DNA from: an uncultured Bacteroidota bacterium
Lineage (GTDB): Bacteria > Bacteroidota > Bacteroidia > Chitinophagales > Chitinophagaceae
Length of the DNA: 64,000 bases
Assembly (NCBI GenBank): GCA_903829015.1
Contig: CAIKOJ010000098.1
Span: forward strand, 1,773 to 65,772
Direction: 5' to 3'
Part shown: one piece after another, positions 20,903 to 24,599 of the stretch
How positions within the stretch are numbered: position 1 is the stretch's first letter
Layout: each line of letters opens with the position of its first letter
Translations under genes and position numbers: made by a program
The notes under the pieces: generated by a model
Seen by the model: only the letters and a program-made list of their open reading frames with translations
What the model was told of the DNA's origin: nothing
Database searches by the model: none

Positions 20903-22798
20903 TTACGAAACATACTCACTCAGTTCCAGCCAGCGTAGTTCTTTTGTTTCGAGCTCGCTGGTGATGAAAACAATACGATTACTGAGCTGTTGTATCTCGT
21001 CGTAATTCAGATTGGGATTCATCATTTTCTCTGTGATCACGGTTTTCTCTGCTTCCAGAGCGGCTATGTCTTTTTCCAGTTGGTCGTACTCCCGCTTGTC
21101 TTTGAAAGAGAATTTCTTTTTCTCAGGTGCCGGTTTCGGAGTTTCAGCTTTTGGCTTTTCGGCTTCGGGCTTTTCTGAATTTTTTTTCGGTTCTTTTTCT
21201 TTGGCTCTTTCCTCTATACGGTAGTTGCTGTAGTTGCCCGGGAAATCGCGTACTACACCATCGCCCTCAAACACAAACAGATGGTCTACCAGCCTGTCCA
21301 TAAAATAACGGTCGTGAGATACGATGAGCAGGCAACCCGGAAAATCGGTAAGGAAATTCTCTAACACCGAAAGGGTGGGGAGGTCGAGATCGTTGGTAGG
21401 TTCATCGAGTATCAGGAAGTTGGGATTGGTGAATAGTATGGACAACAACTGCAGCCTTTTCTTCTCACCACCACTGAGTTTGGATAGGTAGGTATACTGC
21501 TGTTCCGGCGGAAACAGGAATAATGTAAGGAACTGGGAGGCGCTCAAAGTACTGCCATCGGCGAGCGGGAAATTCTCTGCAATATTCTTTACAAATTCTA
21601 TGATCCGCATATCCTCCTTGATCACCAGCCCATGCTGCGAGAAGTTGCCAAATACTACTGTATCGCCAATGTTTATTTTGCCGCTGTCTTGTGCCTCAAG
21701 GCCCTGCAGCATCTGCAGGAAGGTGCTCTTGCCTGCACCATTCTTACCTATAATACCCAGGCGCTCCCCTTTTTTGAAAGTATAGTCGAAGCCCTTTAGT
21801 ATCACTTTATCGCCATAGCTTTTGTATACCTTTTTCAGCTCGGCCACCTTGCCGCCCATTCGGCTCATTTTCATTTGCAGTTCTACCTGCAGGTCCACTA
21901 CCTTTTGTTTGGCTTTGCCTTCAATTTCATAAAAGTTATCCTGCCGGCTTCTCGACTTTGTGGTGCGGGCTCTGGGCTGTTTGCGCATCCATTCCAGTTC
22001 TTTACGGTACTGGTTGCGCGCCTTGTCTATATTGGCGATTGTGTTTTCAATACGTGCGGCTTTTTTCTCCAGATACTCGCGGTAGTCGCCTCTGTAGGTA
22101 AACAGATTTTCTTCATCGAGCTCCCATATTTCATCACACACATCTTCCAGAAAGTACCTATCGTGGGTAACCATGAGCAGTGTTACTTTTTCGTGGTTCA
22201 GGTAGTTTTCCAGCCACTCTACCATAGTTACATCGAGGTGGTTGGTAGGCTCATCCATGATCAGCAGTACGTGCTTATGCTCAAAGCCAATATCGATAAG
22301 CACCTGCGCAAGCGCCACACGTTTACGCTGGCCGCCCGATAGTGTTTTTACCTTCTGATCGAGGTTGTCAATATTGAGCTTGTTGAGTATCTGGTGCACT
22401 TTGGCTTCAAAATCCCATGCACCCAGTTCGTCTATTCTTGCCAGCGCGGCAGACAGCTCGTTATGGTCTTTAGACCCTTCCGCAAGTATTTTTTCGTAGT
22501 TGCGCATGGCCTCGGCCACGGGGTGCTTGTAATGAAATATATTATCCAGTACCGATAATTCTTCGGCAAACTGCGGCTCCTGCTCAAACAGCGCTACAGT
22601 TACATCTTTATGTATCCATATGGTGCCTTCGTCTACGGTGTCTTTGCCGGCCAGTATTTTCAGCAGGGTACTTTTGCCACTGCCGTTGCGGGCAATAAGG
22701 GCTATTTTATCGCCCTCGCTGATGTGGAAGGTGATATCTGTGAACAGGGGCTTGATACCATATGACTTGCTGATCTTGTCGGCTGAAACGTAATGCAT
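20903..22798 (-). CDS. ABC-F family ATP-binding protein (Uup-like)
   Basis: Two ABC domains (RNGSGKS/LSGGQ, KNGAGKS/LSGGE), no TM, C-terminal coiled coil; start ATG 22798. Confidence 0.93.
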   Translation of the reverse strand: MHYVSADKISKSYGIKPLFTDITFHISEGDKIALIARNGSGKSTLLKILAGKDTVDEGTIWIHKDVTVALFEQEPQFAEELSVLDNIFHYKHPVAEAMRNYEKILAEGSKDHNELSAALARIDELGAWDFEAKVHQILNKLNIDNLDQKVKTLSGGQRKRVALAQVLIDIGFEHKHVLLIMDEPTNHLDVTMVEWLENYLNHEKVTLLMVTHDRYFLEDVCDEIWELDEENLFTYRGDYREYLEKKAARIENTIANIDKARNQYRKELEWMRKQPRARTTKSRSRQDNFYEIEGKAKQKVVDLQVELQMKMSRMGGKVAELKKVYKSYGDKVILKGFDYTFKKGERLGIIGKNGAGKSTFLQMLQGLEAQDSGKINIGDTVVFGNFSQHGLVIKEDMRIIEFVKNIAENFPLADGSTLSASQFLTLFLFPPEQQYTYLSKLSGGEKKRLQLLSILFTNPNFLILDEPTNDLDLPTLSVLENFLTDFPGCLLIVSHDRYFMDRLVDHLFVFEGDGVVRDFPGNYSNYRIEERAKEKEPKKNSEKPEAEKPKAETPKPAPEKKKFSFKDKREYDQLEKDIAALEAEKTVITEKMMNPNLNYDEIQQLSNRIVFITSELETKELRWLELSEYVS

Positions 22799-22807
22799 AA
22801 GAGGCGG

Positions 22808-22815
22808 CAAAGGTA
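22808..22815 (-). promoter_or_regulatory. Bacteroidota -7 promoter element for the ABC-F gene
   Basis: TACCTTTG on the minus strand, 9 nt before the ATG. Confidence 0.65.
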
Positions 22816-22835
22816 GGTTGATAAGTTGAATGGTG

Positions 22836-23023
22836 GTTAGTAGATAGTCGTTAGTAGATAGTAGATGGTCGGGAGGCGTTAGTAGATAGTCGTTAGTAGA
22901 TAGTAGATGGTCGGGAGTAGTTGGTATTTAGTAGCCCTCCTTCGCTACAGCCGCCGTTGAAACTATGGCTGTTAATAAAAAAAGCTACGGCGGGTAAAAT
23001 AGTAGATAGTAGATGGTCGGGAG
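22836..23023 (+). repeat. 40-bp unit GTTAGTAGATAGTCGTTAGTAGATAGTAGATGGTCGGGAG, two perfect copies plus one partial
   Basis: Copies at 22836-22875 and 22878-22917, partial at 23000-23023; internal 7-nt periodicity. Confidence 0.93.
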
Positions 23024-23137
23024 GGGATTGGGAATTTCCCATTTTTAGCGATAAGTTGTAAAAGTGCGTAACTGATTGGTAATCAGGTTAATTGCCTGGA
23101 AAAATTTCTCAAAAACTACCCAAGTGGGAAGATCAGG

Positions 23138-23159
23138 ACCTGCCTGCCGGCAGGCAGGT
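23138..23159. repeat. Perfect 22-bp palindrome ACCTGCCTGCCGGCAGGCAGGT (REP-like)
   Basis: Sequence equals its own reverse complement. Confidence 0.9.
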
Positions 23160-23399
23160 TTAGGGATTTTAGGATTTTCAGAATGCTCTACTTTATATTA
23201 TAAAATATTTTACCGCAAGATTTTTAAAAGGTTCACAAAGGATAGATTGTTATAAAATCAACCGGAAGCAAACTTCCGTTTCACTTCCGGTTTCTTCCGG
23301 TGGCGGAAATGCCGAAAATGACGTAACTTATTGATAATCAATTGTATTTTGTAGTAATTGCGGGTTCGGTTGAAAAACCTGGATACCGGAAGCCGCAAA

Positions 23400-23449
23400 C
23401 CCCAAACCCCCGCCTGCGGTGAAGCTTCGGCGCAGGCCTAAAGGGGCTT
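23400..23449. repeat. REP-like hairpin GCCTGCG...CGCAGGC nested within CCCC/TAAAGGGG
   Basis: Stem 23412-23418 pairs with 23431-23437. Confidence 0.7.
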
Positions 23450-23662
23450 CCCCATATTAAGTAATCCGAAAAAATGAATTACCGATAGAGTCGCGTAAAT
23501 ATCGGATATGGACAGGAAATGGCAAAATCAAAAATCTATGATAGGACGTATGCTGCCAGTGATGGGACGGAGGGGGCCTATGATGGGAAAAAGTTTGAGG
23601 TGATATGCAATATTCTAAATTTGAATTTTTTGTTTATTTTTAGGTTGAGCGTGGTGCATTCG

Positions 23663-23709
23663 CCAGTCGGAGACTGGTAACAACGAAACCGTAGGCGGAG
23701 ACTACGGTT
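23663..23709. repeat. Pair of REP-like hairpins sharing a CGGAGACT core
   Basis: CCAGTC-GGA-GACTGG at 23663-23677 and AACCGTAG-GCGGAGA-CTACGGTT at 23687-23709. Confidence 0.75.
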
Positions 23710-23776
23710 AACGGGGATTTTTTATAGAAAATAGTTAGATTGTCGAAATAATCTATTTTCGCATTAAATTTTATTT

Positions 23777-24304
23777 ATGAACCGAAAAATAACACTATTA
23801 TTAGCTTTTTTGATTTGCATAATTTCTGCTGACTCTTTTGCGCAAAAATGTAGATTTGAAAAAGATGAAATAGATGGCTTTACAAAAGAGCGTTTTAGGT
23901 TGGCACCGCGTTTACCAATAAGCAAATCACCACCCTGGTGGGTGCAAATGGAACAAAAAAAAGACAAGTTCTTTTTCAATATTCAGATTTTTGTGCTGGG
24001 TGAGGTGCGTGTTCGCATGGAGCAGGGCAACAAGATTCTTGCAAAATTGGAAGATGGATCCATTATTGAACTTGTTGCGGACAAGGAGGTCACCCCAAAA
24101 TTTGATTTGTATGCAAATAGTGTCTCCACAGAGTGGGCTATTCACATATCTATTTCAGAAGATGATATGAAAAAATTCAGCTTGTCTCCAATACAACTTA
24201 TGCGAACAACTATAGGAGGAACTGAATACAACATGCCTGATGCAGGCCCCAGGTACACTGCAAAAATTACAGAAATGGCAGCATGTATGCTAAAAAAAGA
24301 TTAA
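23777..24304 (+). CDS. Hypothetical secreted protein
   Basis: 175-aa ORF with a classical signal peptide (…ADSFAQ). Confidence 0.7.
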   Translation: MNRKITLLLAFLICIISADSFAQKCRFEKDEIDGFTKERFRLAPRLPISKSPPWWVQMEQKKDKFFFNIQIFVLGEVRVRMEQGNKILAKLEDGSIIELVADKEVTPKFDLYANSVSTEWAIHISISEDDMKKFSLSPIQLMRTTIGGTEYNMPDAGPRYTAKITEMAACMLKKD

Positions 24305-24372
24305 AGGAATTGGATATAGTATGTGGTTCCGCAGAGCCATTTGTAGATGGAAAGATAGCCAATTCCGCCGCC

Positions 24373-24599
24373 GTTGGTGTTCCTCACCATCAGCATCGCG
24401 CAGGGCTATAAATAACACGGCTTCACAAAATCCCACACATGGATTGTGGCTGTAAAGAATATTAGATCGTATTTGCTTGATGAAGCCAATGCCGGAGCCG
24501 TTCAATCAAAGATAGCTATCAGCTTTTATTAGTTCATTTCGGCTTTTTCGCCGGCCTGCTTTTCCCGGCGCGAGCTTGTTGGTGAAGAACACCAACAAG
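24373..24599. repeat. Inverted pair of REP-like elements TGGTGA(G/A)GAACACCAAC
   Basis: 24373-24389 is the reverse complement of 24580-24596 (16/17); perfect 10-bp stem at 24575-24599. Confidence 0.75.

Follow-up and report, generated by a model that had tools for sequence, protein, structure and literature searches.

The small dispersed repeats SDR1-8 of Nostocaceae, reportedly described by Elhai et al. in Genome Research in 2008 as 'very small mobile repeated elements', are units of ~20-27 nt, far below the size of miniature inverted-repeat transposable elements (MITEs). They insert precisely into other repeats or palindromes and nest in one another. We know of no transposase for these units. 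Here, we report on hairpin-forming units of 20-28 nt in an uncultured Chitinophagaceae bacterium of the phylum Bacteroidota (genome G000; 3.99 Mb in 225 contigs, GC content 43.7%). The window, the whole stretch of DNA that was analysed, comprises 64 000 nt (C98:1773-65772 of G000; C-numbers denote contigs, while other G-numbers denote further genomes compared). A 966-bp gap between two divergent genes of the window holds three nestings, in each of which one repeat unit interrupts another. We named the units O (AAACCCCAAACCCC-TAAA-GGGGCTT), M (CCYKCCTDCGCW-loop-GCTWCGGCRGG), I (ACAGCCGYCGTTGAAACTATGGCTGT) and P (CCTGCCTGCCGGCAGGCAGG). They are ultra-small repeats of a poorly understood kind, and their closest known counterparts are the SDRs of Nostocaceae. 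As an explanation of the whole region we favour, with moderate confidence, a mosaic of repeat modules that has been interrupted by inserted ultra-small hairpin elements, the insertion being directed by DNA structure and catalysed by an enzyme acting in trans.

The SDRs share several features with the units described here. By their description, they too are placed precisely and nest, just as in the gap an array hosts the 20-nt unit, an M loop the 26-nt unit and an O hairpin the 28-nt unit, each at a precise point. Filled and empty versions of corresponding sites are found here as well, in tRNA-Arg and tRNA-Gly genes. They are not seen at the window locus, where the nearest relative (88% identity of the neighbouring ABC-F ATPase) has different upstream genes. 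The differences from SDRs are the Bacteroidota host, a perfect palindrome that keeps every letter far beyond the genus and even in viral contigs, the occupation of tRNA gene loops and a recurrent link to cassettes coding for a mini GIY-YIG nuclease. Among the SDRs, SDR5 targets HIP1 and enters it between its third and fourth bases (PMC4390886).

Repetitive extragenic palindromic (REP) sequences, together with bacterial interspersed mosaic elements (BIMEs) and the REP doublets known as REPINs, are another related system. They resemble the present units in being short, GC-rich, imperfect and intergenic palindromes that form mosaic clusters with a fixed motif order (PMC2817692, PMC3116915). The genome also has a REP-associated tyrosine transposase (RAYT) with flanking REP doublets, and one such doublet lies in this region. 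However, P, M and I do not form inverted doublets as in REPINs; each is a lone hairpin, whether nested or free-standing. The flanks of P, M and O have no conserved GTAG/CGTC tag (the window copy of M is the only one with GTAG in front of it), and none of O, M, I and P flanks a Y1 transposase gene in the way that its own REPs do; the co-occurrence with such genes is weak. The substrate of Escherichia coli TnpA-REP is single-stranded REP DNA, which it cleaves with low specificity and whose strands it can transfer; its binding is abolished by a perfect palindrome (PMC3333891), whereas P is exactly that. REPs inside other palindromes have been reported (PMC3733652), and 20-28-bp long palindromic singlets are by-products of REPIN excision (PMC3337134).

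Insertion aimed at the hairpin of another repeat is also a property of IS1397, ISKpn1 and ISPpu9 (PMC1525189, PMC12288879), but those are kilobase-sized and carry genes, whereas the insert here is a 20-28-nt hairpin. Rickettsia palindromic elements (RPEs) and the GC or palindromic clusters of organelles, such as the LIMPs of Lobosphaera mitochondria (PMC4524435), similarly reside in genes, RNA genes and dispersed repeats and have no known enzyme. Nevertheless, they are larger (RPEs ~100-150 nt), occur in other hosts and show no sequence relationship to our units. MITEs are ~100-400 bp long, with terminal inverted repeats and target duplication, in contrast to 20-28 nt and no duplication here. 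The absence of duplication is shared with elements derived from IS200/IS605 (PATE), yet PATE insert 3' of a fixed tetra- or pentanucleotide, while no fixed word is found here.

Anatomy of the nestings and their uninterrupted counterparts

The preliminary description of the gap had proposed, from the letters alone, that three repeats are each split by a hairpin, and all three structures are present as proposed. In nesting (a), the 26-nt I hairpin (22947-22972, plus strand; ACAGCCGCCGTTGAAACTATGGCTGT) splits CCCTCCTTCGCT (22935-22946) from TAATAAAA and AAAGCTACGGCGGG (22973-22994). The outer unit is an M-family hairpin (22935-22994, plus strand) with left arm CCCTCCTTCGCT and right arm AGCTACGGCGGG, and it is the apical loop of this hairpin that I interrupts. 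Nesting (b) consists of P, a perfect 20-nt palindrome of the form (CCTG)2CCGG(CAGG)2, given without strand and located at 23139-23158 between GATCAGGA and TTTAGGGATTTTAGGATTTTCAGAAT. Its host is a GATC(AGGATTTN)n array of 8-mers (23131-23184, plus strand), broken after the first AGGA. In nesting (c), a 28-nt M-type hairpin with a 7-bp stem and a GCTTCGGC core (23411-23438, plus strand; CGCCTGCGGTGAAGCTTCGGCGCAGGCC) is flanked by AAACCCCAAACCCC and TAAAGGGGCTT. It lies between CCCC and TAAA of an O hairpin, AAACCCCAAACCCC|TAAAGGGGCTTCCCCAT (23397-23455, plus strand), with 1-2 bases of ambiguity at the junction because both insert and host have C residues at the boundary. The word AAGCTWCGGCG, previously pointed out as common to the inner unit of (c) and the outer unit of (a), is indeed present in both, because the two units are members of one M family. 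Bases 22751-23830 are 100% identical to two independent ENA metagenome assemblies; the nestings are therefore no assembly artefact.

We then asked whether the units exist elsewhere in the genome. The outer units of all three nestings do occur uninterrupted, and the inner units are all multi-copy. Copy numbers range from 7 to ~40, and the units are short, GC-rich and mainly intergenic palindromes. Uninterrupted O (CCCCTAAAGGGG) is present in 18 exact copies versus 0.26 expected from base composition. Another ~11 copies of O are filled at the same point: 8 or 9 hold M (26-33 nt) and two hold M together with I, the three-level nests O > M > I being located at C151:56026 and C187:22749. The M-family inserts in O include those at C26, C35, C55, C58, C141 and C187. 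Empty copies of O thus outnumber the filled ones, and they form a more uniform class. The majority of O copies (25/32) lie outside open reading frames (ORFs) of at least 120 aa, while such ORFs cover 87% of the genome.

The M family comprises ~22 copies, found both inside and outside O, of which 7 carry I and ~15 do not. There are two arm subtypes, and each is able to carry I. The CCCTCCTTCGCT...AGCTACGGCGGG unit occurs without an insert in at least nine copies, including those at C141:21929, C170:15315, C169:7945 and C209:4211, and AAAGCTACGGCGGG is present in five copies (0.016 expected). All seven copies of I in G000 reside in an M loop. I is present in 10 of 53 congeners, and in several species it again occupies the apical loop of M. 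For the P 20-mer, there are three exact copies and additional variants in G000 versus ~0 expected. At least 12 GATC(AGGATTTN)n arrays are free of the palindrome, one of which (C176:4479) shares the upstream module of the window. P-filled arrays of this type are found in the window, at C120:27901 and at C169:7984 (with a shortened P), all interrupted at the identical point, GATCAGGA|TTT. Judged by the flanks, each of the three has a different closest empty relative (C176 for the window, C221 for C120 and C127 for C169). Empty and filled copies are present throughout the genome, and the mapped junctions are single precise points with no target duplication.

Insertions of P in tRNA genes

The polarity of these events is best seen in tRNA genes. 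In tRNA-Arg(TCT) (C139:509-604) and tRNA-Gly(CCC) (C184:17878-17971) of G000, P or a close variant lies between nt 38 and 39, and ARAGORN reads the two genes as tRNAs of 94-96 nt. P-free counterparts of these genes are present in G081, G048 and G156, and an intact tRNA-Arg paralogue is located 350 bp from the P-bearing copy. Taking out 20 nt restores the tRNA-Arg gene exactly; in tRNA-Gly there is one further substitution, C to G, right after the insert. No base is duplicated at the junctions of P in tRNA genes. The same tRNA-Arg site is occupied by P in G194, G209, G012 and G002. Moreover, P is found in the D-loop of tRNA-Arg, tRNA-Leu(CAG) and tRNA-Leu(CAA), and the spare tRNA-Arg(CCT) copy at C169 is broken by two M-type hairpins. 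All these insertion sites are in cloverleaf loops or at their edge. Since the sites share no homology, they must have been reached de novo, and since the same tRNA genes are uninterrupted in relatives, the polarity of P is that of insertion. Taken together, the data support nested insertion for all three inner units. For P, both the insertion polarity and the absence of target duplication are proven; for M in O and I in M, we infer the same polarity by analogy and from the ways in which empty and filled copies are combined.

We also considered P as a bacterial tRNA intron. This was rejected as the main interpretation, as P lies at 38/39 and not 37/38, is a bare 20-nt palindrome, and occurs in G000 in genes with degenerate acceptor and T stems, the tRNA-Arg copy having an intact paralogue next to it. 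Two further loci combine P with tRNA sequences. G012 (C1:179900-180500; L085) has a tandem array in which tRNA-Arg-like pseudo-units follow one another every 138 bp, each without the 5' acceptor strand and with a terminator-like hairpin at its end; P is at 38/39 in three of them, and one partial unit is empty. In a viral contig (L214), P lies in the variable region of tRNA-Met, and a truncated homologue (L191) has it at the same position.

Probable kinship, distribution and candidate enzymes

P, the insert of (c) and I all fold as DNA hairpins (-8 kcal/mol for P; -11.3 kcal/mol, z = -3.4, for the insert of (c)). I is a 26-nt near-palindrome, in which the three outer pairs of the stem change on both sides among 20 copies from eight genomes (ACAGCC/GGCTGT, ATAGCC/GGCTAT, ACTGCC/GGCAGT, GAAGCC/GGCTTC and CCCGCC/GGCGGG). 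The alignment of these copies has 89.5% of its cells paired, with changes on both sides in four pairs and 18 cells; values as high were not reached in any of 500 shuffles, and slid controls were all far below them. The 9-nt arms of P are those of the M2 subtype (CCTGCCTGC...GCAGGCAGG), and the arms of I are similar to the right arm of M. Judging from these similarities, P, M and I look like related families of ultra-small single-hairpin DNA elements.

The distribution of P was analysed in related genomes, which are mostly metagenome-assembled genomes (MAGs), so that gene absence is uncertain in them. Each of the 25 genomes of the genus has between 0 and 58 copies of P, while the reversed control sequence gives 0. 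P is also found in three further families of the order. In G002, it interrupts (TTACGAC)n and further arrays of 7-8-mers, a tRNA gene and two more repeat families, and the 20-nt P occupies O hairpins where G000 has M. In G016, P is nearly always in one hairpin context, CCTCTCC..GAGAGG|P|GYCGGGGAGAGG. The exact 20-mer was detected in 35 stretches of IMG/VR viral contigs (L190-L224), many of them GC-rich, mostly inside arrays of 7-8-mers. The earlier suggestion that the hairpins prefer other repeats holds as a description of this genome, two congeners and viral contigs, P lying for the most part in arrays of short period, in other hairpins or palindromes and in tRNA loops. Part of this apparent bias may stem from better survival where DNA is neutral, from passive copying along with composite units or from gene conversion between repeat copies. 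The C|T target rule of E. coli TnpA-REP was considered and dropped, as only about half of the context classes fit it.

P was also encountered beside a GIY-YIG locus. The GIY-YIG gene of G000 at C151:53560-54190 (L226) is bounded by the inverted repeats GCCGTCATTTCGAA / TTCGAAATGACGCC. At this site, another strain (L230:1773-2690) has a HicB-HicA pair bounded by the direct repeats GCGTGAGGCGGCT..TCGTGCCTCGCCGTGACCCGT, one with a precise 20-nt insertion of P and the other empty.

Mobilization by Y1 HUH enzymes (RAYT or IS200-like), as put forward in the preliminary description, is not borne out. G000 has one bona fide RAYT (C141:21151-21702; NF047646, 98 bits) and two IS200-like TnpA genes (C72 and C120), and each is flanked by its own, different inverted hairpins (loci C141:21067-21780, C72:16077-16740 and C120:35100-35930); co-occurrence with the units is weak. 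The RAYT has REP doublets on both sides, in inverted orientation, of the type seen at 23662-23707 of the window. P is present in G005, G020 and G024 without a Y1 match (these are MAGs, in which the genes are possibly missing), and eight Y1-bearing genomes have no P. The O-like matches at the RAYT-1 orthologues of G002 and G017 (L097, L099) turned out to be those genes' own REPs (GCCCCnnnnGGGGCTA). Such REPs were also rejected as the origin of O: they have a similar shape, but only 4-6 copies, none with an insert. As a separate observation, the GTCGGGAG word of the RAYT REP is also present in the tandem array of the window (GATGGTCGGGAGG).

The second candidate is a mini GIY-YIG nuclease. At C139:159-604 (L086) and C169:4512-5050 (L228), three parts come one after another: a spare tRNA gene that P or M disrupts, a mini GIY-YIG gene and the intact tRNA gene. 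The same layout is present in G194, G209, G012, G002, G007, G025 (another family) and one viral contig; besides L086 and L228, the cassette loci are L088, L087, L188, L189, L187, L186 and L221. The tRNAs of the cassettes are Arg(TCT), Arg(CCT), Leu(CAG) and Leu(CAA), and the nucleases are ~77-90 aa long. The GIY-YIG ORF at C139 extends into the tRNA gene, where the TAG in the D-loop is its stop codon. P is present in every one of the six genomes that have a C139-type GIY-YIG gene (at least 55% identity; p = 0.006), an association that is partly circular, as the cassette itself carries P. G016 has 22 copies of P and no gene of the C139 type. A cassette-like mini GIY-YIG gene with no tRNA nearby was also noticed at C94:100-800, between direct repeats of ~85 nt (tttcgtgaggttgcttcgatgcg...catctcgcaa.gacac).

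Based on these observations, a possible mechanism can be outlined. P, M and I would be inserted as DNA into single-stranded or hairpin-prone places, namely arrays of short period and the loops of hairpins and tRNA genes, by a cut-and-join reaction that is directed by DNA structure. The enzyme would be supplied in trans, the candidates being a Y1 HUH transposase of the RAYT or IS200-like type and the mini GIY-YIG nuclease that the cassettes at tRNA genes encode. Once inserted, the hairpin would be multiplied passively whenever its host repeat is copied. We infer both the targeting of single strands or structure and the action in trans. In a specific version, which is tentative and rather doubtful, P, M and I might be non-autonomous partners of the mini (~80-90 aa, Slx1-like) GIY-YIG cassettes at tRNA genes, with a nuclease that recognizes extruded hairpins and inserts a bare 20-30-nt hairpin into hairpin loops, slipped arrays and tRNA genes.

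The mosaic setting and competing explanations

The gap is bordered on the left by an ABC-F ATPase gene (20903-22810, minus strand), whose protein has its nearest matches in MAGs of uncultured Bacteroidetes and Chitinophagaceae. On the right, there is a gene for a small secreted protein (23777-24304, plus strand; 175-aa ORF), which has no match in Pfam and whose N-terminus resembles a signal peptide. This ORF was discarded as a transposase candidate on the same two grounds and because it is unlike RAYT. Nearly all 20-base stretches of the gap recur elsewhere in the genome. At nine loci, at least three modules of the gap recur with their order unchanged; taken singly, a module can have as many as 20 copies. 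The gap is one copy in a family of ~10-20 collinear, BIME-like mosaics.

In addition to the nested units, the following modules were mapped, all on the plus strand. A tandem array with a 21/42-nt period, TAGTAGATAG...GATGGTCGGGAG (22836-22925; family D1, five copies), forms the left flank of (a); one more unit of it is at 23000-23023, and the array is present at seven loci genome-wide. The module 'aaaaatttctcaaaaactacccaagtggga' (23096-23134) has 11 copies collinear with other modules, and a module of CTTCCGG repeats (23258-23312) has 15. Module F (23495-23600; 20 copies) consists of three direct repeats of (C)TRTGAYRGGA with 21-nt spacing. It resembles a protein-binding iteron and in 14 of the 20 copies faces a downstream ORF, many of these coding for secreted or type IX secretion system (T9SS) proteins. 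The last module is the REP doublet GCCAGTCGGAGACTGG ... CCGTAGGCGGAGACTACGG (23662-23707), of the type that flanks the RAYT of the genome. The genes facing the mosaics are diverse in general, with many coding for secreted or T9SS proteins. The orientation of O relative to flanking genes has no fixed direction, and O was therefore rejected as a promoter or terminator.

The insertions at the window locus are old and fixed. An observation from another locus illustrates the different time scales: in two assemblies of this population, C120:~28143 (L225) differs from L229 over 4 kb solely by one 21-nt unit of a TAGTAGATAGTCGTGAGTAGT array. Judging from this single-unit difference, arrays gain or lose units rapidly, whereas the hairpins do not change.

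Several results weigh against structure-directed insertion by an enzyme in trans. Among the few assemblies of this population that were compared, P, M and I showed no polymorphism: the window locus is identical in two others, and the sole differences are a 21-nt unit of an array and a swapped cassette, both elsewhere. There is no fixed target word, as C|T is present at the empty site in only about half of the context classes. Neither P nor I occurs at any of 32 Y1 loci in G000 and 40 relatives, and the sole copy of O and M at these loci is ~230 bp downstream of the RAYT at C141. The copy number of P correlates weakly with the number of all or strong Y1 matches (Spearman rho 0.32-0.35, p ~0.1) and hardly at all with RAYT-type matches (rho 0.05); all Y1 tests gave p >= 0.09. 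The correlation of P with GIY-YIG gene counts is weak as well. Finally, for I in M and M in O the empty units may be the derived ones, left behind when a longer ancestor lost its inner palindrome, and many filled copies may go back to a small number of events that were multiplied by gene conversion or as composite units were duplicated.

The latter possibility can be extended into a full explanation, in which very few primary insertions took place, while composites (array with P, O with M, M with I) were duplicated, or short-tract gene conversion copied the inserts between paralogous repeats, making the repeat preference illusory. It would account for the ~10-20 collinear mosaics to which the region belongs, for the confinement of I to M (with M plus I at seven sites), for the almost single fixed context of P in G016 and for the lack of population polymorphism in the assemblies compared. 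We nevertheless consider it unlikely, since P resides at six or more unrelated tRNA positions and in many unrelated hosts that cannot be reached by homology. Moreover, the three P-filled arrays each have a different nearest empty relative, I is carried by either subtype of M, and M occurs with as well as without O around it.

It might also be argued that the nested forms are ancestral and that the empty units result from precise loss of the palindrome by replication slippage or hairpin processing. Palindromes are prone to deletion, short C-runs adjoin the insert in O, and I is never seen outside an M-like context. However, the tRNA cases fix P as an insertion, the inner units occur in many other hosts, and empty O copies are both more numerous (18 versus ~11) and more uniform than filled ones, which makes a general deletion polarity improbable. 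We regard as very improbable that the units are immobile parts of a functional structured RNA or regulatory DNA, that is, of a transcribed leader or small RNA with extensible helices. It is true that the core of M can be read as a tetraloop motif, C(UUCG)G or C(UACG)G, that compensatory changes are present in the stem of I, and that the mosaics often face genes. Yet a search of 22000-24500 against Rfam (E <= 1) gave no match, O has no fixed orientation to genes, and the same units break tRNA genes and sit in unrelated hosts and viral contigs.

Insertion of ultra-small hairpins into a repeat mosaic therefore remains our favoured explanation, and it bears on a broader issue. How repeats far below the size of MITEs spread has been a question since the cyanobacterial SDRs, and the matter is unsettled for single REPs too. 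The lineage studied here is a clean system for addressing it: the polarity of P is fixed by tRNA genes, there is no duplication, and the targets (loops and arrays) are structural. It also offers large differences in copy number between congeners and two concrete enzyme candidates. For genome annotation there is a twofold warning, as tRNA predictions are swollen by the pseudo 'long variable arm' genes that such elements create, and the complex intergenic mosaics that they build mimic regulatory RNA. If the doubtful GIY-YIG proposal were true, it would mean a REP/RAYT-like system based on a GIY-YIG enzyme, and P, M and I would represent the smallest known mobile DNA unit, distributed across phyla and viruses.

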